Virus record (IMG/VR): IMGVR_UViG_3300045988_036701
Length of the DNA: 37,611 nt
Direction: 5' to 3' (one strand)
DNA from: a virus
Under the pieces are notes generated by a model that was not told the DNA's origin, ran no database searches, and saw only the letters and a list, made by a program, of their open reading frames with translations. The position numbers were made by a program, and so were the translations under genes. Below, in pieces: positions 1 through 31,853 of this stretch. Numbering within the stretch: position 1 is the first letter of the stretch; each line of letters begins with the position of its first letter.

Positions 1-55
1 GGGATAAGACCGGGCTCCATGTGTTGTTAGGTGTAATTGAAGGCAGTACGATCAA
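1..55. repeat. Terminal overlap, identical to 37557-37611 (circular assembly closure)
   Basis: GGGATAAGACCGGGCTCCATGTGTTGTTAGGTGTAATTGAAGGCAGTACGATCAA is present at both ends. It lies inside a continuous ORF. Confidence 0.9.
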
Positions 56-470
56 AGGGTCTAAGATTATCGGCGGTTCCATAAATATCGGTGATGGCAC
101 TTTTGAGGTGGACAGCGACGGATCAGTGATTATCAATTCCGGCGAAATCAACATAGGAAACGTGATGATTACACAGAATTATACATGGCTGGGCGATTTT
201 GGAATATCCAGTACAGGAGATGGTTTGTTTTATAGTCGTGATTCCGGACACTCAGTACAAATCTATTCTATATCTTACCCTGATATGAATGGCCCTGCAA
301 TCGTATTAACTAACGGAAATTATACAACACGTTTGGGATATGGAAGTCTTGATACTTATGATATTACATTACAGGCATTATATGATGAATACGGGCCATC
401 ATGGATAAGCGTATCAGATAATATTATTGAATTATGGAATCGCTTAATAGCACTTGAAAATTCAATTTAG
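1..470 (+). CDS. C-terminal part of the tail-associated lysin / minor structural protein (continuation of 36026..37611 across the circular junction)
   Basis: Same reading frame as 36026..37611 once the 55-bp overlap is collapsed. Stop at 468-470. Joined length is 666 aa. Confidence 0.8.
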   Translation, partial: DKTGLHVLLGVIEGSTIKGSKIIGGSINIGDGTFEVDSDGSVIINSGEINIGNVMITQNYTWLGDFGISSTGDGLFYSRDSGHSVQIYSISYPDMNGPAIVLTNGNYTTRLGYGSLDTYDITLQALYDEYGPSWISVSDNIIELWNRLIALENSI

Positions 471-482
471 AATTGAGGAGGG

Positions 483-511
483 TTGAACTGATGAATAAAA
501 TAGAATATAAT
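483..511 (+). promoter_or_regulatory. Sigma70-type promoter of the moron gene (TTGAAC-17 nt-TATAAT)
   Basis: TTGAAC at 483-488, a 17-nt spacer, and TATAAT at 506-511. It is followed by GGAGG at 521-525 and ATG at 534. Confidence 0.55.
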
Positions 512-533
512 GTAGATAAAGGAGGTGATAAGT

Positions 534-1115
534 ATGTTTATAAAACGACGGTTATTTCTTTTATCTATGTTATTTTCACTATTTTTTTCTATCAATATAT
601 ATGCTATGCCAAAAAACTTAAATACTAAAGAACCTATTTCACCAACACCATTAAATGATAGCAGTTTTCAAGATGGTAATCGATGGACATGGGTGAATGA
701 TAATTTATGTGTACAGTTTCGGACTGGAGGTCCGGTTAATACCGCTATTACTAGGGAACAATTACAAAAAAGATACGATCTTGGCTTATTAAATCACTGG
801 TACGAAGATGGGAAAATAAAAGAGCGTGAAACATATTCCGGTAAATGGTCACAGGACGAAGACGGTATATGGTCATTTGTATTTGATGATAACACAATTC
901 CAGCTGAAATAACTAAGATTGACGATGTTTATTATGCTTTTAATAATTATGGAGAACTACGAGAGGGTGTAGTGTATTATGGAAAAGCGAAAACGCCCTA
1001 TGATAACACTGGAACCCTGACAACCGGAGCCGACGGAGTAGTTAATTCAGACGATCCGGAGTTTCTGGCTTGGCTGGAAACGCAGTACGTACCGGCGTGC
1101 ACGAGTCACGAATAA
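534..1115 (+). CDS. Secreted protein of unknown function with cell-wall-binding-repeat-like segment (moron)
   Basis: ATG 534 sits 8 nt after GGAGG. The N-terminus MFIKRRLFLLSMLFSLFFSINIYA looks like a signal peptide. The segment DDVYYAFNNYGELREGVVYYG resembles a cell-wall-binding repeat. The region is strongly AT-rich and carries its own promoter and terminator. Confidence 0.75.
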   Translation: MFIKRRLFLLSMLFSLFFSINIYAMPKNLNTKEPISPTPLNDSSFQDGNRWTWVNDNLCVQFRTGGPVNTAITREQLQKRYDLGLLNHWYEDGKIKERETYSGKWSQDEDGIWSFVFDDNTIPAEITKIDDVYYAFNNYGELREGVVYYGKAKTPYDNTGTLTTGADGVVNSDDPEFLAWLETQYVPACTSHE

Positions 1116-1131
1116 ATAAGATACTGAACAC

Positions 1132-1161
1132 AGAGCGAGGAATAACTTCCCCGCTCTTTTT
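1132..1161 (+). terminator. Rho-independent terminator after the moron gene
   Basis: AGAGCGAGG-AATAACTT-CCCCGCTCT stem-loop with one mismatch, followed by a T run. Confidence 0.6.
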
Positions 1162-1187
1162 GTATGCCTAAAAAGTGAGGTGATTAT

Positions 1188-1574
1188 ATGGCAGATATTA
1201 GCAAAGAAATACAGGCTTTTCAGGACGCGGAATATGGCGAGGAAGTCCGCGGGTCTATGATATCCCTGGCTGAGAAAGTTAATGACGAAGTTGTAAAAGG
1301 TACTGTTGATGCTAAAGCAGCGGCTCAAAATGCAAATAAGGCGGCAGCTGATGCAGATGCCATACGGCAGGATCTTCAGTACAAAAAGGAAACCGATTAT
1401 TGGAGAGGAAGGCCAGGAGAAAGTGGAATCACTGCTTTAGCTTCTGGAATGTTTACACTGGCACTCGACCCGACGACGTATGACTTGTATGCATATTATC
1501 CGGATGCAGATAATCCCCCCGCATTTGAATATGAGAAAGCGACCGGAAACCTATACTATCTGATCGATGATTAA
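1188..1574 (+). CDS. Tail fibre-associated protein (N-terminal ..AEYGEEVRGSMI.. motif; C-terminal PPAFEYEKxTGNLYY tag)
   Basis: RBS AAAAGTGAGGTG. Position is in the fibre module. The C-terminal tag is shared with the 3167..3388 product. Confidence 0.7.
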   Translation: MADISKEIQAFQDAEYGEEVRGSMISLAEKVNDEVVKGTVDAKAAAQNANKAAADADAIRQDLQYKKETDYWRGRPGESGITALASGMFTLALDPTTYDLYAYYPDADNPPAFEYEKATGNLYYLIDD

Positions 1575-1588
1575 AAGTGAGGTGCAAT

Positions 1589-2062
1589 ATGATAGTAGCG
1601 AAGTTTACAAGCGGCTGCACAACAACGGCTCATGGATTAACTCAGTGGGATTACGGTCAGGAACTTGTACTTGAATGTGCAGGGCTGGAAATACCTGACG
1701 GCACAGAGATCAATTACTATCAGGGGAAATTGTCCAGTATAGCATACATGAAAAGCAATCATGTAATGATTCCCGATATAATGTTGCAAAGTGCTGACGA
1801 CATAACCGCATATGTGTATATCCGATCTCCGGCCAGCGGTGAAACTGTTTTATCTGTCAAACTACCTGTACGGGAGCGGCCGCAACCTGATAATTATGTG
1901 CTTCCAGAGTATAAAGATTATACAAGGCTCCTTCCCCCAGGCGGGGACGCAGGTCAGGCACTTATAAAAGCGACGGATCAGGACTTTGATACACAATGGG
2001 TTGATGATGCAGGCATGGAGGAAATGACAGATGCCGAAATCGATGCAATGTTTTTAAATTAA
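1589..2062 (+). CDS. Tail/baseplate structural protein (BppU-like N-terminus, tentative)
   Basis: ATG 1589 follows the same AAAAGTGAGGTG RBS as the 1188 gene. The motif HGLTQWDYGQELVLE is present. The C-terminal TDAEIDAMF tag is shared with the 2073 gene. Confidence 0.65.
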   Translation: MIVAKFTSGCTTTAHGLTQWDYGQELVLECAGLEIPDGTEINYYQGKLSSIAYMKSNHVMIPDIMLQSADDITAYVYIRSPASGETVLSVKLPVRERPQPDNYVLPEYKDYTRLLPPGGDAGQALIKATDQDFDTQWVDDAGMEEMTDAEIDAMFLN

Positions 2063-2072
2063 GGAGGACCAA

Positions 2073-3152
2073 ATGGGAAAATATTTTTCTTCTGAAAATG
2101 CTATAAGGTATTGGAATAATACAAAGAACTGGGTCATGGATCTTTTTGTGGCTAAGGTTGACGGGAAAGGACTGTCTACAGAGGATTATACTACTGCTGA
2201 GAAAAACAAGCTGGCTGATTTGCATAATACTACTGTAGATAGCGCGTTATCCAGCACATCAACAAATCCGGTACAGAATAAGGCAATCAATACAGCTTTA
2301 GCCGGTAAGGTACCGACAACTCGTAAGGTTAATAACAAGGCACTTTCCGCAGACATTAACCTTACGGCGGCTGATGTGGCAGCGATCCCGGCAGCACAGA
2401 AAGGCGCGGCCAGCGGAGTGGCGGAGCTTGACGCATCCGGGAAGGTTCCCGCAGCGCAGCTTCCCAGTTATGTAGACGATGTTTTAGAATATCCTGCAAA
2501 AAGTAACTTCCCAGCAACGGGAGAAACCGGAAAAATATATGTGTCTACGAACGATAATAAAACCTATCGTTGGAGCGGAAGCGCTTATGTCGAAATAAGT
2601 GCCAGTATTGCATTGGGAGAGACCGCCAGCACGGCTTATCCTGGCAATAAAGGAAAGATAGCTTACGATCACAGCCAGGCGGCACATGCTCCGGCAAATG
2701 CCGAACAGAATGTTCAGTCTGATTGGAGTGTGACAGATACATCATCTGATGCCTATATCAAAGGGAAACCGACCTCCATGCCTGCCAATGGTGGTAATGC
2801 GGCTACGGTTGGAGGACATACCGTAGGGATTGACGTTCCGGCAAATGCAATATTTACAGATACGAAACCCGTTGCCATGAAGGGCGCGACTGCTTCGGCA
2901 GCTGGTGCAGCTGGCTACGTTCCCACTCCGCCAGCTGGATCACAGACAAAGTTTTTGAGGGCTGACGGAACTTATCAAACACCTGCGAACACAACGTATT
3001 CTGCGTTTAAAGGAGCAACCGCCAGCGCTGCGGGTAGCTCCGGTTTGGTTCCGGCCCCTGCTGCTGGAAAGCAGGATAGTATATTATGTGCAGACGGAAC
3101 GTGGGCGGAGCCTTTAACTGACGCTGAAATTGATGCTATATGTGTTGTGTAA
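2073..3152 (+). CDS. Tail fibre protein
   Basis: Fibre-typical motifs are present: STNPVQNKAINTAL, GVAELDASGKVPAAQLPSYVDDV, GETGKIYV and LGETASTAYPGNKG. There are two tandem repeats of the form FKGATASAAG..GxVPxPxAG....ADGTW. RBS is GGAGG. Confidence 0.85.
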   Translation: MGKYFSSENAIRYWNNTKNWVMDLFVAKVDGKGLSTEDYTTAEKNKLADLHNTTVDSALSSTSTNPVQNKAINTALAGKVPTTRKVNNKALSADINLTAADVAAIPAAQKGAASGVAELDASGKVPAAQLPSYVDDVLEYPAKSNFPATGETGKIYVSTNDNKTYRWSGSAYVEISASIALGETASTAYPGNKGKIAYDHSQAAHAPANAEQNVQSDWSVTDTSSDAYIKGKPTSMPANGGNAATVGGHTVGIDVPANAIFTDTKPVAMKGATASAAGAAGYVPTPPAGSQTKFLRADGTYQTPANTTYSAFKGATASAAGSSGLVPAPAAGKQDSILCADGTWAEPLTDAEIDAICVV

Positions 3153-3166
3153 CGAGGTGAGGTCGC

Positions 3167-3388
3167 ATGGGAAAATTTATTAGCAAAGCTAATTTAGAAC
3201 GCATATGGAAAAAAACAAAGGCTTACACAGACAGAAAGTTCGATGATGTTAATCCTATAGGACTGTTTAATTTGCAGTATGATGCTGCAACTGGAAATCT
3301 GTACGCGGTTTATCCTGACGGATCACCGCCGCCTGCATTTGAATATGAAAAGGATACCGGGAACTTATACTATATAACGAGTGATTAA
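3167..3388 (+). CDS. Small fibre-module protein, mosaic of the 2073-type N-terminus and the 1188-type C-terminal tag
   Basis: MGKFISKANLERIWKKTK resembles MGKYFSSENAIRYWNNTK. PPPAFEYEKDTGNLYYITSD resembles NPPAFEYEKATGNLYYLIDD. RBS is GAGGTGAGG. Confidence 0.65.
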   Translation: MGKFISKANLERIWKKTKAYTDRKFDDVNPIGLFNLQYDAATGNLYAVYPDGSPPPAFEYEKDTGNLYYITSD

Positions 3389-3403
3389 GGAGGACTTTAT
3401 AAA

Positions 3404-3886
3404 ATGGCAAGAATTTTAATTGGAAATATAAAACCAACTTTAGTAAACAATGCCCTTACTACACAGGCAGGATTGTACGCCTTAGACGCGGCCATGGGAT
3501 ATACGCTTGACGATAAAATAGGCAAGGTAAGTAGTGATTTAGGTGCGTTAGAAACTAACCTTGCAATATCAAATTACACATATTATCCAGTTACTTCCAG
3601 CACTACTTCCAATGCAGCAACTATTAAAGGTACTGGTAAAGTTATCAGTATTGATGGAGCCTTAACTGCTAAAGCTGGATTATCCATCGAAAAGTGGGGG
3701 AAAACCCTCGTGGGGTGGGTCCCAGAGGGGACAGTCCCAACAAATGATGTGTACTGCTATATGCAAGATAACATGTACATCTTAATTGATACTCAGCGTC
3801 AGGTATGGCTATGCAATAGGACTGCGGCCACTAAAGATGTATCGAATGTCAGCTACCTATATTCGTGCACTTATTTAATACAATAA
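3404..3886 (+). CDS. Receptor-binding tail protein: constant N-terminus (aa 1-46) fused to the currently expressed C-terminal cassette a
   Basis: Strong RBS TAAGGAGG. The N-terminus NNALTTQAGLYALDAAMGYTLDDKIGK is typical of fibre/RBP shoulders. Recombination-site copy A lies at codons 43-46. Confidence 0.75.
   Translation: MARILIGNIKPTLVNNALTTQAGLYALDAAMGYTLDDKIGKVSSDLGALETNLAISNYTYYPVTSSTTSNAATIKGTGKVISIDGALTAKAGLSIEKWGKTLVGWVPEGTVPTNDVYCYMQDNMYILIDTQRQVWLCNRTAATKDVSNVSYLYSCTYLIQ
3529..3543 (+). repeat. Crossover-site copy A (AAGTAGTGATTTAGg)
   Basis: Read as (V)-S-S-D-L-(G) inside CDS 3404..3886. Confidence 0.7.
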
Positions 3887-3890
3887 TCAA

Positions 3891-4167
3891 TTAGACAAAC
3901 TTGAAAATTGCACCTAACTGGATTGAGCCGCTGAACGTACGATCAAAATATACCCGTAACACACCGTTTACAAAGGCTGTGCCGAGTACCTGCACTTGGT
4001 TTACTTGATAGTTGGTATTAAAAACTGATAGTACTCCACCAGACACTTGATCAGATTTGATTGACGACCAGTCCACATAGTTTGCATTATTTACCTGTGC
4101 TATGTAAGCTGCAAATTGTATCTTACTAATTTTAGACTGAGCATCTGATAAATCAGTTCGCACCTCT
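3891..4167 (-). other. Silent alternative C-terminal cassette b (92 codons, no independent ATG or RBS)
   Basis: The minus-strand frame is open from site B to the stop at 3891-3893. The first start-like codon is GTG 4163 with no Shine-Dalgarno sequence. It is convergent with cassette a, with stops 4 nt apart. Confidence 0.6.
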
Positions 4168-4182
4168 GCTAAATCACTACTT
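4168..4182 (-). repeat. Crossover-site copy B (AAGTAGTGATTTAGC on the minus strand)
   Basis: The plus strand reads GCTAAATCACTACTT. On the minus strand it is read E-S-S-D-L-A, in frame with cassette b. Confidence 0.7.
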
Positions 4183-4259
4183 TCACAATTAAGAAACTTG
4201 TTAATCAGAGCTGAAAGGCTCTTATTTTTATACCCGAAAAGGGAGAAAGGAGTCCGTAC

Positions 4260-4640
4260 ATGAAGGACACTATGATCTTAAAAAATGGAACTATTATTGA
4301 ACTGGAGGCAGGCGCAAGCCTGGGAGCCTTACAGGTGGTGGCGACTGATCGGGCGGCCATGGTGGCAACATGGGAGGTATTGACACCAGATAATCTTGCA
4401 GCAGTGCAGATCAAAAACGGAGATGGAATTGTAATCGGAAATTATACTGACCTCGTGTTAGCTTCTGAAACGTCCACGGTATCCGCTGATGGCGCTGTCC
4501 TTACAACGTATAGCCTGCGCGAGAAAACGGACATAGAGAAGCGCCTGGACGCTGTAGAGGAAGGTCAGGCGGTGCAGGATGGGGCAATCGGTGATCTCGG
4601 TGAAGCGGTTGGTACACTGGCGGAAGGAGGTATAGCATAA
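4260..4640 (+). CDS. XkdW-like phage protein (pre-lysis module)
   Basis: RBS GGGAGAAAGGAG. Size and position match the PBSX-type order XkdW-XkdX-XhlA-holin-lysin. Confidence 0.6.
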   Translation: MKDTMILKNGTIIELEAGASLGALQVVATDRAAMVATWEVLTPDNLAAVQIKNGDGIVIGNYTDLVLASETSTVSADGAVLTTYSLREKTDIEKRLDAVEEGQAVQDGAIGDLGEAVGTLAEGGIA

Positions 4641-4750
4641 TGGGGGCATTTTACGGAACACGGATCAGGCGCGGTATTATTACGATTAATGAGGTGCCGA
4701 AGTTTTGGAAAACAAAGACAGAAAAATGGCTGGAAGAGAATCCGGAATAA
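4640..4750 (+). CDS. XkdX-like small protein (36 aa), not in the supplied ORF track
   Basis: TAATG overlap with the previous gene. The product is MGAFYGTRIRRGIITINEVPKFWKTKTEKWLEENPE, which is typical of the short protein preceding holins in Firmicutes phages. Confidence 0.5.
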   Translation: MGAFYGTRIRRGIITINEVPKFWKTKTEKWLEENPE

Positions 4751-4769
4751 CTGACAGGAGGGCTTACAT

Positions 4770-5009
4770 ATGCCTACAGAGATAATGGTGGCTCTGATCG
4801 GGCTGGGAGGCAGTGCAATCGGTACATTCGCCGGCGTGTTTGCGTCGGCGAAACTGACCGCCTACCGGCTAGAGCAGCTGGAGAAGAAAGTGGATAAGCA
4901 TAACACAGTTATTGAGCGGACCTTTAAATTAGAGGAGGCTCAGGCGGTTATGCAGGAGCAGATAAAGGTTGTTAATCACAGGATCAGTGATCTGGAAAGA
5001 GAGGAATAA
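4770..5009 (+). CDS. Membrane-anchored coiled-coil lysis-cassette protein (XhlA-like role)
   Basis: One N-terminal transmembrane segment (VALIGLGGSAIGTFAGVFASA) followed by a coiled coil. RBS is GGAGGG. It lies immediately upstream of the holin. Confidence 0.7.
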   Translation: MPTEIMVALIGLGGSAIGTFAGVFASAKLTAYRLEQLEKKVDKHNTVIERTFKLEEAQAVMQEQIKVVNHRISDLEREE

Positions 5010-5011
5010 TT

Positions 5012-5278
5012 ATGGATTTTGGAATTGCGAGTGTTGCAGGTATCACAGCGCTGTGCTATTTAGCCGCTATGGCGGTTAAGGCAACGACAGTAGACAACAA
5101 ATGGCTGCCGGTAATCTGCGGAGTTATCGGGGCATTACTGGGCGTTGCGGGTATGTATACAATGCCGGATTTCCCGGCAGTGGATATAATCAACGCAGCG
5201 GCGGTTGGAACTGTATCGGGGCTTGCGGCTACCGGTATCAACCAGATTTATAAACAACTTAAGGGTGGCGGCCAGTAA
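5012..5278 (+). CDS. Holin (phi LC3 / Hol44-like)
   Basis: Multiple transmembrane segments, the motif GLAATGINQIYKQLKGG near the C-terminus, and a position before the endolysin. Confidence 0.8.
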   Translation: MDFGIASVAGITALCYLAAMAVKATTVDNKWLPVICGVIGALLGVAGMYTMPDFPAVDIINAAAVGTVSGLAATGINQIYKQLKGGGQ

Positions 5279-5345
5279 CGCTGGAGGTGATCCGCTAATC
5301 TCCCAGCTGGCAGGGTTAGAGCCGGAGCTGTTGCGATCTCGCAAC

Positions 5346-5368
5346 AGTTGTGACGTCACAACTTTTTA
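5346..5368 (+). terminator. 18-nt perfect palindrome AGTTGTGACGTCACAACT followed by TTTTT (terminator-like or protein-binding site)
   Basis: Seen directly, between the holin stop and the endolysin start. Confidence 0.4.
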
Positions 5369-5369
5369 T

Positions 5370-5395
5370 GGGCCTGGGATTCCGGGCCCTTTTTT
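5370..5395 (+). terminator. Rho-independent terminator between holin and endolysin
   Basis: GGGCCTGG-GATT-CCGGGCCC forms an 8-bp stem with one G-U pair, followed by TTTTTT. Confidence 0.55.
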
Positions 5396-5416
5396 AATGA
5401 AAGGATAGGTAAAATT

Positions 5417-6160
5417 ATGAGAGATATTACATTATGCCATCCGCGGCTTCAGGCACTGGCGGGGCGACTCGTGGAGGAGTGCAATAAGCAGGGACTTAAA
5501 ATTAAGATCGGCGAGACGCTGCGGACCGTGGCAGAGCAGGACGCGCTTTACGCTCAGGGCCGAACAAAGCCTGGGCCTATTGTGACCAATGCGCCGGGAA
5601 GTAACTTCAGCTCCTACCACCAGTGGGGGACCGCGTTTGACTTTTTCCGCAACGACGGCTCCGGGGCCTACAACGAGAGTGGCCGCTTTTTTGAGCGCGT
5701 CGGAGCTATTGGAGTCGCCCTGGGGCTGGAATGGGGCGGCAACTGGAAAAGTCCGGTAGACAAACCACACTTCCAGCTTTCAGACTGGGGTAGCACTACG
5801 GCCGGTATTAAGCGGTTGTACCGCAATCCGGATGAGTTTATGCACACCTGGGAGCCGGTGGAAGACCGGATCGGCTGGATCAGTACGCCCAATGGCTGGT
5901 GGTATCGCAGGCCAGACGGGACGTATCCGACGAACAAGTGGGAAGTTATCAATCACCACTGGTACCTGTTTAACGGTGACGGATACATGTGTACGAGCTG
6001 GCACCGGTGGAACGGCAGTGTATGCGATCCGGAAGATGGTTCTGGGGACTGGTACTATTTCGATCCGACCACAGGCGGAGCGTATGAGGGCGCGTGCTGG
6101 CGGAGTCGAGATAATGGAGCCATGGAAATATGGTTTGTAGATCAGGCAGATAGTATATAG
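5417..6160 (+). CDS. Endolysin: peptidase M15 (VanY/L-Ala-D-Glu peptidase-like) domain with C-terminal cell-wall-binding repeats
   Basis: Catalytic-domain motifs TLRTVAEQDALYAQGRT, SYHQWGTAFDF and LEWGGNW..DKPHFQ. The C-terminus carries the repeats WWYRRPDGTY, HHWYLFNGDGYM and DWYYFDPTTGGAY. Confidence 0.9.
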   Translation: MRDITLCHPRLQALAGRLVEECNKQGLKIKIGETLRTVAEQDALYAQGRTKPGPIVTNAPGSNFSSYHQWGTAFDFFRNDGSGAYNESGRFFERVGAIGVALGLEWGGNWKSPVDKPHFQLSDWGSTTAGIKRLYRNPDEFMHTWEPVEDRIGWISTPNGWWYRRPDGTYPTNKWEVINHHWYLFNGDGYMCTSWHRWNGSVCDPEDGSGDWYYFDPTTGGAYEGACWRSRDNGAMEIWFVDQADSI

Positions 6161-6183
6161 TTTTCGTACTTAAGAGCGAAAAA

Positions 6184-6208
6184 GGGGGATGATAATCCAT
6201 CCCCCTTT
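6184..6208. terminator. Bidirectional-looking terminator after the endolysin
   Basis: AAAAA-GGGGGATG-ATAATC-CATCCCCC-TTT. It abuts site copy C. Confidence 0.65.
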
Positions 6209-6209
6209 C

Positions 6210-6224
6210 AAGTAGTGATTTAGC
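6210..6224 (+). repeat. Crossover-site copy C (AAGTAGTGATTTAGC)
   Basis: Read S-S-S-D-L-A, in frame with cassette c. The frame opens only at 6196, directly after a stop. Confidence 0.7.
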
Positions 6225-6759
6225 GGCGGAATATGCTCTTGCCGGTACTACTTTTGTTACTGATTTTAATAATGCCTCCATGCCGGGGCGCTATCGAGTC
6301 TATAACGCCTCAGGGACCGCTGCACATGGTCCATATGCTGGATCAGTTGGTGGTTATGTAGATATCCTTACAGATGGAGATACTGCTGTAACAGGAACTA
6401 AAGTATATCAAGAACTACACGATCACAACGGAGACACATATACGCGGATTAATATAGCAGGCACATCATATGGTGCGTGGGAGCACTATACACAAGACTC
6501 CGATTTGGGAGGCAATCTGCAGCTCCGTTCAAAATTGTACACCGGTTCCGCTGCATCAGGAATTGTCGTTACCAGCCGAAACAATCCCATATCACTGGAA
6601 AATGTCAGTGGACAAATTCTTGCTCATGTAGATAGCAACCAGATCGGGTATGTATCGACATGTCCAACCAACCCGGTCACTTTTACGGTCGCAAATGGCC
6701 GTGTAAAAATGTATGTCGATAATACATTCATGGGGTTTATTACCACCACTACCACTTAA
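6225..6759 (+). other. Silent alternative C-terminal cassette c (178 codons; pyocin/tail-fibre knob-like domain)
   Basis: TDFNNASMPGRYRVYNASG..HGPYAGSVGGYVDIL..YQELHDHNGDTYTRINIAGTSYGAWEHY matches the knob-domain pattern. The internal ATG 6280 is preceded by CCTCC rather than an RBS. Confidence 0.6.
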
Positions 6760-6764
6760 TATGA

Positions 6765-7032
6765 TCATATTGCGGTCCACTGGCTCCATGCGTCAGTACC
6801 ACGGTCATAGTACGTTTTATACATTTTGCCATTTGCGTCGATGGATATCCAAAATTGATTATTTTCTGACACGCGGCCGCCTATTTGGATACCTGCGGAA
6901 ACACTTGTTAAATTCTGTTTATATGGTGTTCCCAGAGTGTTGGCTCCCCAAAGTGCAAAATGTATACCATTTGCCGCCTGCCATGATTTGGAGTCTGTAA
7001 GCACAGTGAGATTTTCCAGTCCGGAAAGGTTC
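6765..7032 (-). other. Silent alternative C-terminal cassette d (89 codons; knob-like tip)
   Basis: The minus-strand frame is open from site D (the stop TAG lies just upstream of it). QFWISIDANGKMYKTYYDRGTDAWSQWTAI is knob-like. The only start-like codon is GTG 7004, with no RBS. It is convergent with cassette c, with stops 5 nt apart. Confidence 0.6.
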
Positions 7033-7047
7033 GCTAAATCACTATTA
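7033..7047 (-). repeat. Crossover-site copy D (TAATAGTGATTTAGC on the minus strand, 13/15 match)
   Basis: The plus strand reads GCTAAATCACTATTA. On the minus strand it is read L-N-S-D-L-A, in frame with cassette d. Confidence 0.6.
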
Positions 7048-7347
7048 AGCTATCTCAAACCTTTGTTAATTGTTTGTCATACGCCGTTTTTCGCCGTTAT
7101 TCTGAGCTGAAAAAAAATATTGGTAGTATCAAACTAATATCATTATTTTTTAGCGGTACGCGAGAACCCTTGATTTTACAGGGAAATCCAAAAAATGCTT
7201 GCGAAATTCGACATTCTGTGAGAAAAGAAATTCACCCTTGAAATACGCTGCGATTTTAGAAGAATAACGTTTTTACAAGGGTTTAGAGGATTTACTTAAA
7301 GTGGTAAAATGATGAAAAAAAGTATAAATAGTATCATAATAGTATCA
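7048..7347. other. Non-coding AT-rich region, candidate attP with arm-type repeats
   Basis: TAGTATCA occurs at 7124-7131, 7329-7336 and 7340-7347. ACCCTTG occurs twice directly, and there is one inverted near-copy (ACAAGGGT). The position between the lysis genes and the integrase is the classic attP location. Confidence 0.4.
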
Positions 7348-8556
7348 TCACTTTATTTTATTAATTTCTTTTAGGTACCACTCCAGGGACATATGGGTAT
7401 AAACAGAATCAGTAACGTCTTTGATCTTGTGGCCGAGGAACATTCTGCGGGCATATTCATCTACTTTATAACGCTTTGCAAGTGTTGAAAAAGTGTGCCT
7501 GGTGTCGTGCGGCCTGTGATCCGGATCGAGTCCGAGTGCATCTACAACCTGGCCGAAGCGATAATGATAGGCTTTGTAATCGACAGCTTTGCCGCCAATG
7601 ACAAATAAGGTGGTACTTCTGGCAGCCTTCGCTTTCTCATAACTTTCTTTTACTATATCATAGATTTTTGGGTGTATGGGAACAATTCTGTTTTTTGACG
7701 ATTCTGTTTTATTACCTCCGGAGAAACTACGATTTTTTAAATCTATATTCTCCAGCAGTAAATGGCATAACTCATCTGGCCGCCAACCACTATAAATTCC
7801 GATGTACATTATGTTGGCTCCGGGAATAGTGAGATTCTTTGATAGCAATTCTATCTCCGCATCTGTAAAGATGATATGTGGTTTCTTAACGTCGGTATCT
7901 AAAGTCAGTTCAAAGGAACGGGCATAGTTTTTCTGTATAATATCTAATTCTCCAAATGCATAGTCATACATTAAATTCAACAGCGATTTTATAAGTCCCT
8001 TGATGTTGTCAGTAGCAGTTACTGTTTTGGTCTTTCTTACTGCACAGGCATTATTTATACAATGCTTTAATTGTGGCACCTTTGTATTTATTACCTTTTT
8101 ATCATATAGCGCCGAACAATATGACCATGCTAATTCAATATTTTGTTTACGGCTATCTGAAAGATCTGGAAAACGTTCTTTCGTAAAGGCTTCGTAGAGC
8201 TGCTGTAAAGTCATATTGTACGATGCGATATCATAAGGATCATCATGGTACTTTATGATTGAACTCATTGCTTTTCCTCTATCTTCATAATAACCGATCC
8301 AATCATAATCATAATGGGATTTCTTTGTTTTTTCGTTTAACACAAGCCGCGGATTCACTCCGGCCAGATATGGCTTACGGCGATTTCCACTTATTTTCCT
8401 GATTGTGCCATATCCATTGGGGAGGCGTTTTACGCCACGAGGTCTATTAAGCTTTTTGGAAAAAGGAGCGGAAGACAGAGGACATCCGCAATGTGGACAA
8501 GAAAACGCCTTATCACTTACTCTTCCTGCGCACTCTGGACATTGCATAAGTGCCAT
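7348..8556 (-). CDS. int: Tyrosine integrase with N-terminal zinc ribbon and arm-binding-type domain
   Basis: Zinc ribbon CPECAGRVSDKAFSCPHCGC. LPNGYGTIRKISGNRRKPY resembles an arm-DNA-binding domain. The catalytic region contains GWRPDEL..., HDTRHTF, LGH and VYTH. Confidence 0.9.
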   Translation of the reverse strand: MALMQCPECAGRVSDKAFSCPHCGCPLSSAPFSKKLNRPRGVKRLPNGYGTIRKISGNRRKPYLAGVNPRLVLNEKTKKSHYDYDWIGYYEDRGKAMSSIIKYHDDPYDIASYNMTLQQLYEAFTKERFPDLSDSRKQNIELAWSYCSALYDKKVINTKVPQLKHCINNACAVRKTKTVTATDNIKGLIKSLLNLMYDYAFGELDIIQKNYARSFELTLDTDVKKPHIIFTDAEIELLSKNLTIPGANIMYIGIYSGWRPDELCHLLLENIDLKNRSFSGGNKTESSKNRIVPIHPKIYDIVKESYEKAKAARSTTLFVIGGKAVDYKAYHYRFGQVVDALGLDPDHRPHDTRHTFSTLAKRYKVDEYARRMFLGHKIKDVTDSVYTHMSLEWYLKEINKIK

Positions 8557-8763
8557 ATTGTATCACTTCCTTTCTCTTGATTGGACGGAGTTCGTCCAGT
8601 TTCGACAGTCGAAACTATTTTTGAGTATAAAAAATACGCCCTCTTGCGTCGGCGCTTCGGAAATGATATAATTCAAGTGTCGATTGGATTATATCTTCCG
8701 GGGCGACCCAGTAAGAGAAAATCTGCATTAAGCCGTTCGGTGTTACCAGCACCGGGCGGTTTA

Positions 8764-9240
8764 TTATTTAAAGTCAAAATATTTTATTATGGCATAACAC
8801 GGCTCAAACATAATAGCATAGTTATCCAATATCACATAGACACCATATTTAGAATGATAACATTCTATTGCTTCCATCAAATACTTTTCTGTTATATTTA
8901 AGTAATCTGCAATTTCTTCAGCGGTAAATTTTCGGGCTTCATAAGCTCGTATAAGTCCATTCAATCCGATTTTGTTGTTGTATCCCCATAAGCGTGCTTT
9001 ATATTCCTGTTTCTGATTTTCTTGAATAGATAAATCTAAAATATTTCCTGCACTGGTATGGAAATGGCCTCTTTCTTCGGCAAGAGCACAGGTTTTTTCT
9101 TTTTCGGTAGATGCAGCCCGTGTATTTATTGCAACTTTATTATCTGAAATTAGAGCTGTTGCATTTGATTTAAGCACTTTTTCTTTTACGTCTAATCCCT
9201 CATCATAGGCAGCCTGCAAATCTTCTTCATAATTAGTCAT
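8764..9240 (-). CDS. ImmA/IrrE-like (DUF955-type) protein with non-canonical AEERGH in place of HExxH
   Basis: ATG 9240 follows AGGTGG. The layout GLDV..(L)..VAIN...EKEKTCALAEERGHFH...E.KARLW mirrors the ImmA family. It lies downstream of the XRE repressor in the same operon. Confidence 0.5.
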   Translation of the reverse strand: MTNYEEDLQAAYDEGLDVKEKVLKSNATALISDNKVAINTRAASTEKEKTCALAEERGHFHTSAGNILDLSIQENQKQEYKARLWGYNNKIGLNGLIRAYEARKFTAEEIADYLNITEKYLMEAIECYHSKYGVYVILDNYAIMFEPCYAIIKYFDFK

Positions 9241-9275
9241 GCCTATCACCCACCTGTCTTTCGTCTACTGTCAAA

Positions 9276-9914
9276 TTACCAGTTGTCTTCCATATCCTGC
9301 AAATCGGCTTTCATAAGCTTCTGCTGCTCCGGATCGGCAGCATTATCATTGTGGGCTGCTTTTAGTCCGGAGAAAAGATAAAATTGTGATTGCTTCCATA
9401 AATCCCGTAATCGTTTAGTAAAAAAGGTCTCAGAATCATTTATAAATTTTTTGTAGTCTTCCCATGATATGCGGAATGAAGTCTCGTCCTTTTTCAGCAG
9501 ATAATAAGATTCGTCGTTCTCTTCGTCCTGCCTATCATCTATGTGATTGCATGACCAACCTAATACTTTAAGCTGATGAAGAAACGCTTTTTCTTTTACC
9601 TGGAACTGAGACATCTCTTCGTTAAATTTATCCGCCTCGGCGTCCCATGCTTCATCCGTCGTAATTTTGGAATCCATAGGTACGTCATAGCCCATGAGCC
9701 AGGCTTCGCTGACATGTAGGGCCATGCCCAGAATAACAAGTTTGTCTTGACTAGGTTCTACTTTTCCAGAAACATACTGGCTTATATCTGATTTATTCAT
9801 TTTTACATTATACTTTTCGCAAAATGGCAGCGTAAGCGTTAAAATATCAACTTGTCTAAGGTTTCTTTCTTGCATTATTTTTTTTAAGCGTAAAGCTGTA
9901 TTTTCTTCTTTCAT
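9276..9914 (-). CDS. XRE/CI-type (ImmR-like) phage repressor
   Basis: ATG 9914 follows AAAGGAGG. HTH_3 motif LRLKKIMQERNLRQVDILTLT...SDISQYVSGKVEPSQDKLVILGMALHVSEAWLMG. There is no S24 peptidase domain. Confidence 0.85.
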   Translation of the reverse strand: MKEENTALRLKKIMQERNLRQVDILTLTLPFCEKYNVKMNKSDISQYVSGKVEPSQDKLVILGMALHVSEAWLMGYDVPMDSKITTDEAWDAEADKFNEEMSQFQVKEKAFLHQLKVLGWSCNHIDDRQDEENDESYYLLKKDETSFRISWEDYKKFINDSETFFTKRLRDLWKQSQFYLFSGLKAAHNDNAADPEQQKLMKADLQDMEDNW

Positions 9915-9934
9915 TTGAAAACCTCCTTTTTTAT

Positions 9935-9963
9935 AATATATCATACTTTGAATATAAATTCAA
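9935..9963 (-). promoter_or_regulatory. Candidate repressor promoter (TTGAAT-17 nt-TATATT on the minus strand)
   Basis: Read from the reverse complement. It lies just upstream of the repressor RBS. Confidence 0.4.
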
Positions 9964-9997
9964 TATATATAAACAAAAGTTCTAAACACAAAACTAA

Positions 9998-10074
9998 AGT
10001 TAAAAAGTTTTGATTTGTGTATTGACTTTGGTACGTGAATTGTGTATGATGAAGTAGGTTCAAAACTTTTAACT
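9998..10074. promoter_or_regulatory. Operator-like inverted repeat flanking the early promoter
   Basis: AGTTAAAAAGTTTTGA (9998-10013) pairs with TCAAAACTTTTAACT (10060-10074). Confidence 0.45.
10022..10050 (+). promoter_or_regulatory. Early lytic promoter (TTGACT-17 nt-TATGAT)
   Basis: Seen directly, 50 nt upstream of the cro-like gene. Confidence 0.55.
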
Positions 10075-10100
10075 TCATTTGCAAAGAGAGGAGGTATATA

Positions 10101-10325
10101 ATGGCTTTCGATTATAGTAGATTACGCGGCCGTATTGTTGAGAAGTATAAAAATCAAATTGAGTTTGCAAGACGTATGCAGTGGTCGGAACGAACACTTT
10201 CCTTAAAGCTAAATGGGAAAGTTGCGTGGAAACAGCCTGAGATATGTAAGGCGATTGAATTACTCGGACTTAAAGACGATGATATTCTGGCATATTTTTT
10301 TATGAAAAAAGTTCAAGATATTTAA
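10101..10325 (+). CDS. Cro-like regulator (DUF739 family)
   Basis: FDYSRLRGRIVEKYKNQIEFARRMQWSERTLSLKLNGKVAWKQPEI is the DUF739 pattern. It is divergent from the repressor. Confidence 0.8.
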   Translation: MAFDYSRLRGRIVEKYKNQIEFARRMQWSERTLSLKLNGKVAWKQPEICKAIELLGLKDDDILAYFFMKKVQDI

Positions 10326-10340
10326 CTTAAAGGAGGACGC

Positions 10341-10862
10341 ATGAACGATTTAACAAGAACAACCATCACATCAATGGAAGCCGCTGAGTGGTGCGGTAAA
10401 GATCATTCAAAATTGCTGAGGGATATTCGCAATTATATAACTCAGTTAGGAGAAGCCAAAATTGGATTCACCGATTTTTTTAAGGAAGCCACCTACATAA
10501 CAGACCAGAACAAAACCCTTCCTTGTTACCTGGTTACTAAAAAGGGCTGTGAGTTTATCGCCCATAAAATGACAGGCCAGAAGGGGACCGAATTCACCGC
10601 GCGGTACATTAACCGCTTTCATGACATGGAAGAAGGAAAACTCCCTTGTCCCCTCAACCCAATCATTGCTTCCAGCGTTGCGGAACTGGGTCGCGTGACT
10701 GAACGCGTCATGACGAAGCAGGGATCGGCTCCATATAAGATCGCAGAAGCTTTTAAAATGGAGTGTGAGCAGTTCGGTATTCAGCTTCCAGACGACTTTG
10801 TAAAGGTTCCGGACGAAGTACAGATTTACGATCAGATGCATATGTCCAGTTTCCTTAAATAA
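10341..10862 (+). CDS. Rha-family phage regulatory protein / antirepressor
   Basis: ITSMEAAEWCGKDHSKLLRDIRNY...CYLVTKKGCEFIAHKMTGQKGTEFTARYINRFHDME. Confidence 0.8.
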   Translation: MNDLTRTTITSMEAAEWCGKDHSKLLRDIRNYITQLGEAKIGFTDFFKEATYITDQNKTLPCYLVTKKGCEFIAHKMTGQKGTEFTARYINRFHDMEEGKLPCPLNPIIASSVAELGRVTERVMTKQGSAPYKIAEAFKMECEQFGIQLPDDFVKVPDEVQIYDQMHMSSFLK

Positions 10863-10877
10863 GGAGGTGCCGTTTCT

Positions 10878-11135
10878 ATGATAGGAAGAATACGGACTGC
10901 AACGGCCGCTAAGATCTGCGGAGTGTCAACTGGGTATCTGCTTGAGAAGATGCGAACAGGAGAGTACGATCTCGGGGACTACAACAAAAATGGTAAGAAA
11001 GCTTATGCCGTGATTCGTCCCGGGAAGCTGGCAGCGCATCTTCAGCGCAGTATCAGCGAGATTGACACAGCAGTGAGAGAGATTGAAGGAGAGGAGGGAC
11101 GTAAAACGACATGCAGAAGTACATTGACAATATAG
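10878..11135 (+). CDS. Small helix-turn-helix DNA-binding protein (possible excisionase)
   Basis: RBS GGAGGTG. TATAAKICGVSTGYLLEKMRTGE looks like a MerR/Xis-type helix-turn-helix. Confidence 0.45.
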   Translation: MIGRIRTATAAKICGVSTGYLLEKMRTGEYDLGDYNKNGKKAYAVIRPGKLAAHLQRSISEIDTAVREIEGEEGRKTTCRSTLTI

Positions 11136-11269
11136 ACGACTTCGAGGACGACAGCCGGCCGCCGATTGTAGACTGGGTGGAATGGCTGCTGGTTGGGATC
11201 TTTGATCTGGCCGGAGCAGCAGCCTGTGCCTACATAGGGTATCTACTATTACGGGCATGTGTGTTGTAA
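11111..11269 (+). CDS. Possible small membrane protein (52 aa), not in the ORF track
   Basis: MQKYIDNIDDFEDDSRPPIVDWVEWLLVGIFDLAGAAACAYIGYLLLRACVL has one C-terminal transmembrane segment. The RBS spacing is weak. Confidence 0.3.
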   Translation: MQKYIDNIDDFEDDSRPPIVDWVEWLLVGIFDLAGAAACAYIGYLLLRACVL

Positions 11270-11365
11270 AAAAGAAACCCAGACGGGTGGAGCCGTCCGG
11301 GAATCAAGGTAACTGATAATATATTCACGCCCTCATTATAACAGAGGGAGACAGGAGATTGCAAG

Positions 11366-11692
11366 ATGAAAATTATTATGGATTTAAATGGTATTAAAAT
11401 TGAAAAAGAAATTCCAGACGATTTACGGAAGCCGGCGCAGATCATCTTTAATAAAGTGGAAGGGATTGATACTGATCCAACGGTAACGTTAATGGGACCG
11501 AATAGCGGCATATATGCAGGATCATGTGCGATAGTAACCAGTGTTTTAAAAGAGCTGCATCCAGATAATAAAAAGATGCAGAAAGCAGTTTTAGACCTTT
11601 TGTACGCAAGCGTATCAGGAGATCTCGGTCTGAATACAGCTGATAAGCCGAGGAGTTACGGTCCGATCAGCCCGGACGATGTAGATTTCTAA
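11366..11692 (+). CDS. Hypothetical early protein
   Basis: ORF with RBS AGGAG. No recognisable motif. Confidence 0.55.
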   Translation: MKIIMDLNGIKIEKEIPDDLRKPAQIIFNKVEGIDTDPTVTLMGPNSGIYAGSCAIVTSVLKELHPDNKKMQKAVLDLLYASVSGDLGLNTADKPRSYGPISPDDVDF

Positions 11693-11711
11693 TTCAGAGG
11701 GAGGGCAAACC

Positions 11712-12365
11712 ATGCGTGAAGCTGTGAAACTCACCCCACTTACTCCAGAGGAACAGACCTTTGCAGAGGAGAATTACGAAGCTCTTGTCAAAGCAATGAG
11801 AACGCATCACCTGAGTAATGATATGTACGATGTGGCTGCTATGGGATTCTTACATGCTGTCAAGAAATGGTTTGCCCGCCCGGATCTTCGGCAGTGGTCC
11901 TTTCAGACTATTGTGAATAAAACTGTTTGGAGCAAATTAAGCGGCGAGCGGGAAAGAGAAAAACGCCGTATTCAGACAGTGAGTCTTGATGAAGTTATAC
12001 CTGGAACTGACGGCTTAACCTATGGGACCATAATAACAGATGCAAATACCAGTTATTTAAGAAGAGAGGAAAGCAAGACAATGAAAATAAATTTTGATGT
12101 AAAAATACCGGAAGCTGCAAAAATGGGACGAGTCCCCAGCGTAGAGATAGAAACTGTTTTAGATTTCTTAGACTCGACCCATCGTACATTATGTTTCGAG
12201 TATGAAACAGCCAAAGATGCAACAAGGAAAGCGGGAGTTTTGAGATCTTGGAAAAAGAATCATAACAGGGCTGATATTAATATCTACAAAATGGCAGATA
12301 GAGTATTTATTGAAAAAATAGTAGCAAAGGGAAGGAGAAAAGCAAATGTCAATGAAGATAAATAA
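11712..12365 (+). CDS. Hypothetical protein with sigma-70 region-2-like N-terminus (tentative)
   Basis: RBS GGGAGGG. YDVAAMGFLHAVKKW resembles sigma region 2. Confidence 0.5.
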   Translation: MREAVKLTPLTPEEQTFAEENYEALVKAMRTHHLSNDMYDVAAMGFLHAVKKWFARPDLRQWSFQTIVNKTVWSKLSGEREREKRRIQTVSLDEVIPGTDGLTYGTIITDANTSYLRREESKTMKINFDVKIPEAAKMGRVPSVEIETVLDFLDSTHRTLCFEYETAKDATRKAGVLRSWKKNHNRADINIYKMADRVFIEKIVAKGRRKANVNEDK

Positions 12366-16789: not shown

Positions 16790-16801
16790 GGAGGTTAAGA
16801 C

Positions 16802-19048: not shown

Positions 19049-19238
19049 CGGCAACGGCGGCGGATATCATAAAACAAGGAAAATGATAACTGCCCGAAGA
19101 GAGCGGCGGATGTCATTAAATAAGGTAATTGCCGTAAATGCTGTAACGGCGGCGGATATTAGAAAAATATGGTAATCGCCGTGCCGCGGCAACGGCGGCG
19201 AACACCACTATATATAATATATATTTTATTGCCGCCGC
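19048..19238. repeat. Iteron cluster plus AT-rich stretch: candidate replication origin
   Basis: GCGGCAACGGCGGCG occurs at 19048-19062 and 19186-19200. AACGGCGGCGGATAT occurs at 19053-19067 and 19145-19159. GCGGCGGAT occurs at 19103-19111. An AT-only run spans 19208-19230 and is followed by an inverted GCCGCCGC. Confidence 0.5.
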
Positions 19239-19365
19239 TTACGCGTGGTCACGGGGGTAGGATAGGACGGGCTATAGCGCTGCCCGCCCTGTCCCCTCCC
19301 CCTCCCCGTTGACAAGGCCATTTCAAAAATGAATAAAAATTTAAAACTTTAAAGAGGTGAAGTAA

Positions 19366-19761
19366 ATGGAGACGGATTTTTTTCTATCAATGCAACCCCC
19401 GACCGTGACGCATCAAGAGAAGCAGGTACACGTAGTAAATGGTAAGCCTGTCTTTTATGAGCCGGCGGAGCTGAAGGCGGCCAGAGCGAAGCTGAGAGCG
19501 CACCTGGGGAGGCACATACCAGATGAACGAATGACTGGCCCGCTTCGGCTGACTACATGGTGGTGCTTCCCGATTAAAGGGAAACATAAGGACGGCGAGT
19601 ACAAGACCAGCCGGCCGGACACAGACAATCTGGTGAAGCTGCTCAAAGACGTAATGACGGAACTGCATTTCTGGGGAGACGACGCCCAGGTGGCTTGTGA
19701 GGTGATCTGTAAGTACTGGGCGGAGCGTCCGGGAATTTACGTAAAGGTGGAAAGCTTATGA
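19366..19761 (+). CDS. rusA: RusA-family Holliday junction resolvase
   Basis: RPDTDNLVKLLKDVMT..FWGDDAQV...K is the RusA signature. Confidence 0.85.
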   Translation: METDFFLSMQPPTVTHQEKQVHVVNGKPVFYEPAELKAARAKLRAHLGRHIPDERMTGPLRLTTWWCFPIKGKHKDGEYKTSRPDTDNLVKLLKDVMTELHFWGDDAQVACEVICKYWAERPGIYVKVESL

Positions 19762-20000: not shown

Positions 20001-20011
20001 GGGAATAAAAA

Positions 20012-21840: not shown

Positions 21841-22863
21841 ATGGCAGAACAGATGAGTATAGATAACGTGGTAATCAATATAATGAATGGGCTTATGCCG
21901 GTAATCGAAGAAGAGAAGCGCTTAAAGGATGCAGAACAGGTATTATACATGACTCTGGCAAACCTCCAGATCTTTAAGGAGGAAACAGCATTGTCAACAG
22001 AGCTGGACCGGACAAATGAATATCTGATGCAGTATCTGCTGAATATGAGGCTTACAGGCTGTACTGACGGCAGTATCCAAAATTACCGCAACACTCTACG
22101 GAATATGCTGGCCTATGTCAACAAGAATGTTGTAGACATAGAGTATGCAGACCTTAAGAAGTATCTGGCATACGGGAAGTTGGTCAGGGCGTGGAAAGAT
22201 CGTACATATAACAGCAAGTTAATTACAATCCGTAGTTTCTTCGCATGGCTGTATGAGGAGGACATGCTCCCAAACAATCCAGCAAAGAAGTTAAAAGAAA
22301 CTAAGGTGGAGCGCCGGATCGGGCCGACACTGAAGCCGGAGCAGCGCGAAGAAGTCCGGTGCGCGTGTATCGACGAACTGGAATTATCGCTTTGTGATCT
22401 GCTTTATACGTCTGGTGTCCGTGTCTCGGAGCTATGCCGGTTAGATATTGCAGATATAGATTTTAGTAACATGAGGGCCATCGTTTACGGTAAAGGCCGC
22501 AAGGAACGCGAAGTCTATTTCACAGGACAGGCGAAACATCATCTGGAAAAGTATCTTGAATCGAGAGATGATGATAACCCGGCGCTGTTCGTCAGTCGGA
22601 GGAAACCACATAAGCGAATGCAGCCGGGAACAGTGCGCGATATCATGAAAGACATTAAAGAACGAGATCCGGCGCTTGCAAATGTAAAACTGACGCCGCA
22701 TGTCTTCAGGCGGACAGTTGGAACAGACATGATTAACAAAGGGGCTCCGCTGGAGTTGGTGGCTGAGAAGCTGGGTCACGTACAACTCGATACAACGAAA
22801 CAGTGTTATGCAGCCATTGCCAGATCGACGGTTCAGCAGGCCCATAACCGCTATGTAGGATAG
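21841..22863 (+). CDS. Xer-like tyrosine recombinase (no arm-binding domain); candidate invertase for the tail-tip switch
   Basis: SAM-like N-terminal domain (NYRNTLRNMLAY...IRSFFAWLYEEDMLPNNPA). The catalytic residues are in GVRVSEL, KGRKEREVYF, HVFRRT, LGH and QCY. Confidence 0.85.
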   Translation: MAEQMSIDNVVINIMNGLMPVIEEEKRLKDAEQVLYMTLANLQIFKEETALSTELDRTNEYLMQYLLNMRLTGCTDGSIQNYRNTLRNMLAYVNKNVVDIEYADLKKYLAYGKLVRAWKDRTYNSKLITIRSFFAWLYEEDMLPNNPAKKLKETKVERRIGPTLKPEQREEVRCACIDELELSLCDLLYTSGVRVSELCRLDIADIDFSNMRAIVYGKGRKEREVYFTGQAKHHLEKYLESRDDDNPALFVSRRKPHKRMQPGTVRDIMKDIKERDPALANVKLTPHVFRRTVGTDMINKGAPLELVAEKLGHVQLDTTKQCYAAIARSTVQQAHNRYVG

Positions 22864-31302: not shown

Positions 31303-31313
31303 GAGGTGAGAAG

Positions 31314-31808: not shown

Positions 31809-31835
31809 AGAGAGACTTATTCGGTCTCTCTTTTT
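31809..31835 (+). terminator. Rho-independent terminator after the major tail gene
   Basis: AGAGAGAC-TTATTCG-GTCTCTCT followed by TTTT. Confidence 0.7.
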
Positions 31836-31853
31836 AATTGGAGGAAAAAAACT

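Follow-up and report, generated by a model that had tools for sequence, protein, structure and literature searches.

Evidence for a multiple-inversion switch that varies the tip of a small distal tail protein in a temperate phage of Lachnospiraceae

The IMG/VR virus record IMGVR_UViG_3300045988_036701, a stretch of 37,611 nucleotides that was analyzed over its whole length and is referred to here as the window, carries a 160-aa ORF for a small distal tail protein whose C-terminal tip is in all likelihood varied by a multiple-inversion switch, or shufflon. The window is a complete temperate siphovirus-like phage genome of roughly 37.6 kb: positions 1-55 and 37557-37611 overlap by 55 bp, giving a complete circular assembly of ~37,556 bp, and relatives align as window 30960-37611 followed by window 1 onward, with the same overlap of 55 nt. 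ORFs encoding the terminase, the tape measure, a Prophage_tail protein, and fibre-like proteins precede the 160-aa ORF, which is followed by a 126-aa ORF, those for XhlA, a holin, and an M15 endolysin, two silent cassettes (c and d), attP, the integrase, and the repressor. The 160-aa gene is thereby placed 3' of the Prophage_tail and fibre-like genes and 5' of the lysis genes.

The constant part of the tail protein occupies slot 1 (3404..3541, plus strand), which starts with an ATG, has a GGAGG ribosome-binding site, and encodes a stem of 46 codons, MARILIGNIK...GKVSSDL. Slot 1 is the sole expression slot. Cassette a (3542..3886, plus strand; 114 codons and a stop) follows the stem in the currently expressed arrangement and converges with the silent cassette b (3891..4169, minus strand; 92 codons and a stop). 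A second convergent pair, silent in both halves, is formed by cassette c (6223..6759, plus strand; 178 codons and a stop) and cassette d (6765..7034, minus strand; 89 codons and a stop). The four slots make up two convergent pairs, a> <b and c> <d, with the lysis module between them. This central segment (4183..6209, plus strand), which separates the two cassette pairs, contains a hairpin (4207-4222), the 126-aa gene (4260-4640), a small called gene just 3' of it (~4640-4750; 36 aa in the identical contig L161), an XhlA-like gene (4770-5009), the holin gene (5012-5278), the M15 endolysin gene (5417-6160), and a second hairpin (6184-6205), the endolysin terminator.

All four cassettes are headed by copies of one short site. 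Site A (slot 1; 3529-3543, plus strand) reads AAGTAGTGATTTAGG, with one mismatch to the 15-mer AAGTAGTGATTTAGC and G as its last base; site B (slot 2; 4168-4182, minus strand) and site C (slot 3; 6210-6224, plus strand) match the 15-mer exactly, the latter lying directly 3' of the endolysin terminator hairpin; and site D (slot 4; 7033-7047, minus strand) reads TAATAGTGATTTAGC, with two mismatches. The first-pass annotation of this DNA had proposed a shufflon-like switch from four copies at these positions, with an optional terminal C that allows for the G of site A, and all four were recovered. Scanning the window with the 15-mer returned five matches at three or fewer mismatches against 0.87 expected, a number reached in 0 of 100 shuffles, while the 12-mer AGTAGTGATTTA at no more than one mismatch had exactly four copies in 37.6 kb (a mismatch being present in one of them), each at a cassette head. 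The fifth 15-mer match (8129-8143, three mismatches) falls inside the integrase gene, is probably due to chance, and was the only further copy to emerge from the whole-genome scan for degenerate sites suggested by the first-pass annotation.

The sites translate in one frame as S/N-S-D-L, the fourth copy being the one with N, and lead into 118 (A), 96 (B), 182 (C), and 93 (D) open codons counted from the S of the motif, or 114, 92, 178, and 89 codons after SSDL for cassettes a to d; both the common frame and the cassette lengths are as originally read. Upstream of the sites, this frame closes after five codons at C and one codon at D, and 32 codons are open at B. An ATG with GGAGG (3389-3406) occurs at site A alone among the four copies, which bears out the proposal that b, c, and d have no ATG and Shine-Dalgarno sequence of their own. 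Sequence outside the site core is unrelated among the four copies, also as described before.

Rearranged versions of this locus were found in contigs that are metagenome assemblies from other samples and match the window over stretches of 0.3-3.6 kb (identities are 100% unless stated). A protein search with the 160-aa product retrieved ~25 proteins with identical or nearly identical first 46 residues and unrelated remainders; the identical 46-aa stem sits on about 20 unrelated C-termini, and all four stem-tip fusions of the window exist as called genes elsewhere. In contig L246, window 2438-3542 (98.9%) runs into the reverse complement of 4182-3873, joining the stem to b as in an A x B inversion, and its protein P0071 matches the in silico stem+b fusion exactly. 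In L004, window 2572-3542 runs into the reverse complement of 7044-5705, so that the stem is joined to d and followed by c and an inverted endolysin gene (A x D). L001 and L003 read window 1672-3542, the reverse complement of 7044-6210, and then 4168-5355 (middle block of L001, 99.9%; left block of L003, 99.0%), an arrangement of A x D plus B x C that includes a junction of c with the slot-2 flank. L005 joins window 2020-3542 to 6210-6771 (97-98%), and the resulting fusion of stem and c is P0017. The fusion of stem and d, P0018, came from four samples. With junctions of the stem to b, c, and d and of c to slot 2 all present, the data support the earlier claim that inversion can join the 46-aa N-terminus in frame to each of four tips. 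An exact scan with a 30-mer spanning stem and site had no match in JGI metagenomes or IMG/VR.

Breakpoints coincide with the sites. Neighbouring blocks of the recombinant contigs (L001-L005, L246) overlap by 11-15 nt, TAGTGATTTA included. Across all loci the slot-side flanks are constant (gcaaggta, attgtgaa, ccctttca, and gatagctt with an AAT variant) and the cassette side varies, the AAT variant being tied to slot 4 irrespective of the cassette, as in L006 and L010, where slot 4 holds cassette b. Exchange is therefore confined to TAGTGATTTA, 10 bp (3532-3541 in site A). Assemblers work with k-mers longer than 15; the sole assembler k-mer visible among the contigs is the k141 label of L166. 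Since the repeat, at 12-15 bp, is shorter than assembler k-mers, assembly cannot have created the junctions, and an assembly artefact was ruled out as their source.

Longer relatives differ from the window in the same way. The backbone matches the window at 99.99-100% in L006, 99.95-100% in L010, and 100% in L247 in every aligned block, with a> <b in slots 3 and 4 and other pairs in slots 1 and 2 of L006 and L010, and a different cassette in slot 1 of L247. Cassette a, expressed in the window, is silent in slot 3 of L006, L007, L010, and L011.

Slot 1, with its ATG, ribosome-binding site, and 46 codons, ends in AGTAGTGATTTA, and three further copies of the site head silent, start-less cassettes. 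A tyrosine recombinase would exchange strands inside TAGTGATTTA, such that A x B or C x D would flip one pair, A x D the whole 3.5 kb, and B x C the lysis module; combined, the inversions would reach 16 isomers and four proteins. The most probable enzyme would be rec340 (21841-22863), acting on sites 15-18 kb away, rather than the integrase beside slot 4.

Among the proteins encoded in the window are two tyrosine recombinases, int402 and rec340. No match to the Resolvase domain (PF00239) was found in any ORF scanned, nor among the called genes of the identical contig L161 (window ~30960-37611 and 1-13886, about half of the genome), in line with the first-pass annotation, which saw no serine invertase. 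rec340 (21841..22863, plus strand; 340 aa) is a complete XerC/D/XerA-like protein with a PF00589 match and a SAM-like core-binding domain, has no arm-binding domain, and gave XerA, XerC, and XerD as best matches; the catalytic residues R194, K218, H287, R290, H313, and Y323 are intact. It is separate from int402, XerD-like, and armless. The gene for a small sigma-70/ECF-like protein (region 4 match; 22872-23297) lies between rec340, which it follows directly, and the terminase genes, and rec340 may be expressed together with the late-gene regulator.

To compare the surroundings of rec340-like genes, we scanned 68 IMG/VR loci with homologues of 33-45% identity for convergent, in-frame, repeat-headed cassette pairs. 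Close to the rec340-like gene, at distances of up to 1.5 kb, there were 59 pairs in 181.6 kb (0.325/kb), compared with 4 in 451.2 kb (0.009/kb) elsewhere in the same loci, a ~37-fold higher density. At least one pair was present in 31 of the 68 loci, and in 15 of them the gene had pairs to its left and right, giving the four-slot topology of the window. In L156, a co-linear homologue of 33% identity lies between convergent cassettes headed by TAAATAGTAAT, and in L016 a homologue of 35% identity lies 3' of a fibre gene with a 22-nt inverted repeat; in both, the rec340-like gene is inside or beside an invertible fibre tip. Closer homologues all have cassette pairs next to them or nearby, with an identical or almost identical core: at 79% identity in L177/L150, with the identical core AAGTAGTGATTTAGG 3.9 kb away; at 70% in L130, with AAATAGTGATTTA adjacent; and at 56-60% in L146-L148. 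The recombinase gene flanks the cassette block in L130, L147, L148, L156, L187, L200, and other relatives, and the site motif is kept across the family as TTAAATAGTAAT, TTAAGTAGCAA, and TTAAATGGCAAAT, with the general form AARTRGYRAWTT, read L-N/S-S/G-x-L. Loci were kept for 80 of 556 rec340 relatives, and L049-L053, which have the same site, were not among these 80.

On comparative sequence grounds we assign the inversions to rec340 as the probable invertase. The first-pass annotation had called the system a tyrosine-recombinase switch and named no enzyme; its choice of class gains indirect support from the association of the rec340 family with cassette pairs, and the enzyme that it left unnamed is best sought in rec340 and not in the integrase beside copy D. 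The centre of the four-slot layout, usually occupied by the recombinase gene, is taken by the lysis module in this phage, with rec340 sitting elsewhere.

In two cultured Clostridia phages, Terrisporobacter phage TPELB_ph1 (L157, 4914-5909) and Clostridium phage phiCp-D (L158, 4989-5966), a rec340-like gene is annotated as an integrase. It is placed between the last tail gene and the holin gene in both, and TPELB_ph1 has a second integrase elsewhere. Neither phage showed a convincing cassette pair, in AT-rich DNA that yields many chance inverted repeats. These integrases may be mis-annotated fibre invertases.

The integrase int402 (7348..8556, minus strand) is a genuine tyrosine recombinase that carries a zinc ribbon at its N-terminus and adjoins the repressor module. 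It would be the obvious candidate by position if one enzyme both integrated the phage at att and inverted DNA at the four sites: its gene ends 300 bp from site D, and the close relatives L008, L010, and L011 have kept it (93-100% identity). Homology between the phage and its integrated copy in L160 stops at ~7223, directly after TTCTGTGAGA and ~175 bp from slot 4, and attP is therefore located between site D and the integrase gene, in a region (7048..7347) outside the switch. The att core of int402, however, bears no resemblance to TAGTGATTTA. Lineages with the same site also do without this enzyme: L053, in which one copy of the core site was found, carries a large serine integrase in the sequenced part examined, and no int402 homologue was present in the examined parts of L049-L053, L155, L130, and L177. 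Similarity of int402 to the recombinase inside the L156 shufflon is weak and local (24% over 152 residues, E 0.002), and the pair-association statistics favour the rec340 family over int402. A dual role is accordingly improbable, and with its unrelated att core, the L053 serine integrase, and the weak similarity to the L156 recombinase, int402 was judged an unlikely invertase. A tandem direct repeat of two copies of AATAGTATCAT at 7327-7348, kept in L008, L010, and L161, overlaps the integrase stop codon and has AATAGT in common with site D (TAATAGTGATTTAGC); it may serve the integrase as an arm-type site or have arisen by chance.

A recombinase encoded by the host could instead act in trans on the phage sites, with neither phage enzyme involved. 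Trans-acting invertases are known, namely RecV in Clostridioides difficile and Mpi in Bacteroides, and this phage has its rec340 gene away from the sites; a trans-acting invertase was also proposed for a second bifidophage locus in the study that described the Rin shufflon (PMC6109161). Against this, the site motif and the rec340 family occur together in phages that differ widely and probably infect different hosts, and most relatives have their rec340-like gene between or beside cassette pairs, making a host enzyme very improbable. There is also a small chance that no programmed switching is under way, the arrangements being fixed variants that arose by occasional recombination between lineages at a conserved coding motif, as in modular evolution. 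Such a history would fit the clear exchange of cassette pairs between different phages (L155, L006, L010) and the fact that two isomers in one sample could not be shown. Yet arrangements differ on backbones that are 99.95-100% identical over 10-20 kb aligned (L006, L010, L247), and several short contigs show the same over 2-4 kb, so that rearrangement outpaces substitution. The breakpoints, moreover, are confined to 10 bp, which is too short for RecA-dependent exchange, and only a switch would account for silent, start-less, in-frame cassettes and a recombinase family dedicated to them. Many assemblies also end no more than about 120 bp from a site (L002, L005, L015, L163-L165, L246). From these observations, we infer that switching is ongoing within one population.

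Several observations weigh against a rec340-driven tail-tip switch. The rec340 gene lies at a distance of 15-18 kb from the sites, with site D the nearest at 14.8 kb, unlike the arrangement in Rin and in most relatives, and no site copy was found near it. A subgroup of rec340 homologues (e.g., L197-L199, L208-L215) has no cassette pair nearby, and membership of the family alone is therefore no proof of invertase function. The products of A x D and B x C place the lysis genes antisense, which looks costly. Among the contigs shown, no single sample held two coexisting isomers, and the phase of the short contigs L001-L005 and L164 might reflect assembly across a mixed population. No family or structure match in Pfam, PHROG, or PDB marks the stem-and-tip protein as receptor-binding: searches of the stem and cassettes against these collections returned only phrog_3971 (function unknown), for cassette c, with no Pfam or PDB match, and AlphaFold2 run without an alignment gave an unusable model (mean pLDDT 34). 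Gene position and hypervariability nevertheless suggest that the tips bind receptors and would alter host range. With these points included, the multiple-inversion switch is still in our estimation very probable.

As sites B and C are mutually inverted, the lysis module is itself invertible, and the junction of c with slot 2 in L001 and L003 indicates that B x C exchange has occurred. A promoter scan of 3000-7400 found 12 promoter-like sites, compared with 8.0 +/- 3.2 expected. Two contigs, L164 (3590-4052) and L166 (2278-2560), read stem-a> <b, slot-4 flank, attR, and host, and are without window 4180-7032, the segment that holds the lysis genes and cassettes c and d. Either the segment was deleted by exchange between B and D, two sites in direct orientation, in which case the prophage would be grounded, or the contigs are chimeras assembled from mixed isomers. 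They were not accepted as proof of deletion, given that the junction of b with slot 4 is also found in legitimate isomers and that the assembler may have passed from one member of a mixed population to another.

Clustering of the cassettes 3' of the site in all sequences collected gave 39 clusters, one of them spurious, corresponding to about 38 tip families. Phages with this site include siphovirus-like and contractile-tail types, with different stems and different integrases. One of them, L155, is a prophage with baseplate-J and sheath-initiator genes, consistent with a contractile tail, and has a different, longer stem; its positions 10340-10999 nevertheless hold the a> <b pair at 99.4% nucleotide identity to window 3524-4183, with homology ending exactly at the two sites. 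Because the L155 homology ends at the sites, and because L006 and L010 differ from the window by whole pairs, these data point to the exchange of whole cassette pairs between unrelated phages at the sites.

Inverted copies of one site, common to many unrelated phages, enclose each pair, so that the recombinase could swap ready-made pairs. We tentatively put forward a joint reading, possible but doubtful, by which the four-slot, two-pair layout is more than a private switch, being at once an open standard for tip exchange and a coupling of tip switching to lysis. As an exchange standard, the swap of a pair between co-resident genomes would be a natural form of recombinase-mediated cassette exchange, drawing on a community-wide pool of tips. 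As a coupling device, the same enzyme would flip the lysis module and so link tip switching to lysis competence, and deletion between direct repeats could occasionally ground the prophage.

Other loci, reached via the fibre-like protein, contain convergent, in-frame cassette pairs with other repeats, GTTAAATCAGAATTTA and ATTCCGTATCCCA (L055-L058, ~9262-13931; L062, L064, and L074, ~15979-20050). These are probably further shufflon types, perhaps served by other recombinases. In the related phage L053, a 620-aa reverse transcriptase (RVT_1, group II intron-like; 9644-11506) is encoded just downstream of the tail-tip gene, and the single site copy found there may reflect a shufflon disrupted by an intron.

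The first-pass annotation could not place the system in a described family; it can now be placed, being functionally of the same kind as the Rin shufflon (PMC6109161, PMC8778435). Rin is a phage-encoded tyrosine-invertase tail switch of Bifidobacterium breve/longum prophages, with an 11-bp rix site, TTCCCTAACCC, a XerD-like Rin beside the cassettes, and inversions in prophage and virion DNA (Mavrich 2018, PMC6109161); it also occurs in Eggerthella lenta prophages (PMC8778435). As in Rin, the constant N-terminal part of a tail protein (the receptor-binding protein in Rin) is combined with several start-less, mutually dissimilar C-terminal cassettes, each headed by a short asymmetric repeat (11 bp in Rin, 12-13 bp here), the recombinase is XerD-like, armless, and distinct from the phage integrase, and rearrangements fall exactly at the repeats (in Rin, between prophage or virion sequences). 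Unlike Rin, which has Actinobacteria as hosts, the site TTCCCTAACCC, and one block bounded by its constant part and rin, the system described here belongs to Clostridia/Lachnospiraceae, uses AGTAGTGATTTA, splits two convergent pairs by a 2-kb invertible lysis module, has its recombinase gene 15-18 kb off instead of flanking the cassettes, and has a constant part of only 46 aa. In a tblastn search of GenBank phages, Bifidobacterium was not among the 10 organism names listed of 27.

With the R64/IncI1 shufflon (Rci, sfx, PilV), the system shares multiple inversion at short asymmetric sites, tyrosine recombinase chemistry, and a constant N-terminus to which alternative C-termini are joined in frame. 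In R64, however, the product is a plasmid pilus adhesin (PilV) and not a phage tail protein, the sfx site is 19 bp with one conserved arm (12-13 bp here, with no conserved arm on either side), and rci adjoins the shufflon, whereas rec340 is unlinked; no Rci-specific family matched rec340 in NCBIfam. Deletion between direct sfx sites is suppressed in R64, while here L164 and L166 lack the B-D segment, by deletion or through a chimeric path. Min (p15B), Gin (Mu), Cin (P1), and Pin (e14) also switch phage tail-fibre C-termini by inversion, and Min does so with several crossover sites and many isomers, as here. Those enzymes are serine invertases that use 26-bp sites together with an enhancer and Fis, unlike the present system, in which no Resolvase-domain protein was found. 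In the hsdS shufflons of type I restriction systems (e.g., pneumococcal SpnD39III/CreX-PsrA), which we liken by description only, a tyrosine recombinase likewise moves silent half-genes into one expressed specificity gene via short inverted repeats, though the target is a cellular defence gene of another protein family and the repeats differ. The system thus works like the Rin and R64 shufflons and is not of the serine-invertase type.

The phage is present as an integrated copy (prophage) in the 105-kb contig L160. In the host flank, a GuaA fragment is 88% identical to GuaA of Lacrimispora sphenoides, and the nearest genome match of the upstream fibre protein is Enterocloster lavalensis (77%); the host is therefore a Lachnospiraceae bacterium. 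A megablast search of window 3000-7400 against GenBank phages returned no match. Upstream of the stem gene, a 128-aa protein (1188-1574) and a 73-aa protein (3167-3388) share a C-terminal motif of ~20 residues, ...NLY.YYPD...PPAFEYEK.TGNLYY...D, and the corresponding DNA (1515-1574 and 3329-3388) is 80% identical over 60 bp. Fibre proteins may have this motif in common as a module for docking or assembly.

In the literature, which was covered incompletely, no description of such a shufflon in Clostridia phages was found, and tyrosine-recombinase tail shufflons were found only in Actinobacteria prophages (Rin). The window and its relatives represent a large, apparently undescribed branch of tyrosine-recombinase tail shufflons in gut Clostridia phages, with a signature of a Xer-like recombinase of 330-340 aa, the motif AARTRGYRAWTT, and two convergent cassette pairs, together with a very short universal stem and dozens of tips pooled across phage types. 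Recombinases of this type are routinely annotated as integrases, and metagenome assemblies of such phages will break or be mis-phased at the sites. The lysis genes inside the invertible span are a testable oddity. Tail-tip switching determines which bacteria a phage can infect, and a host-range prediction from one assembly would be wrong for three of the four tips.

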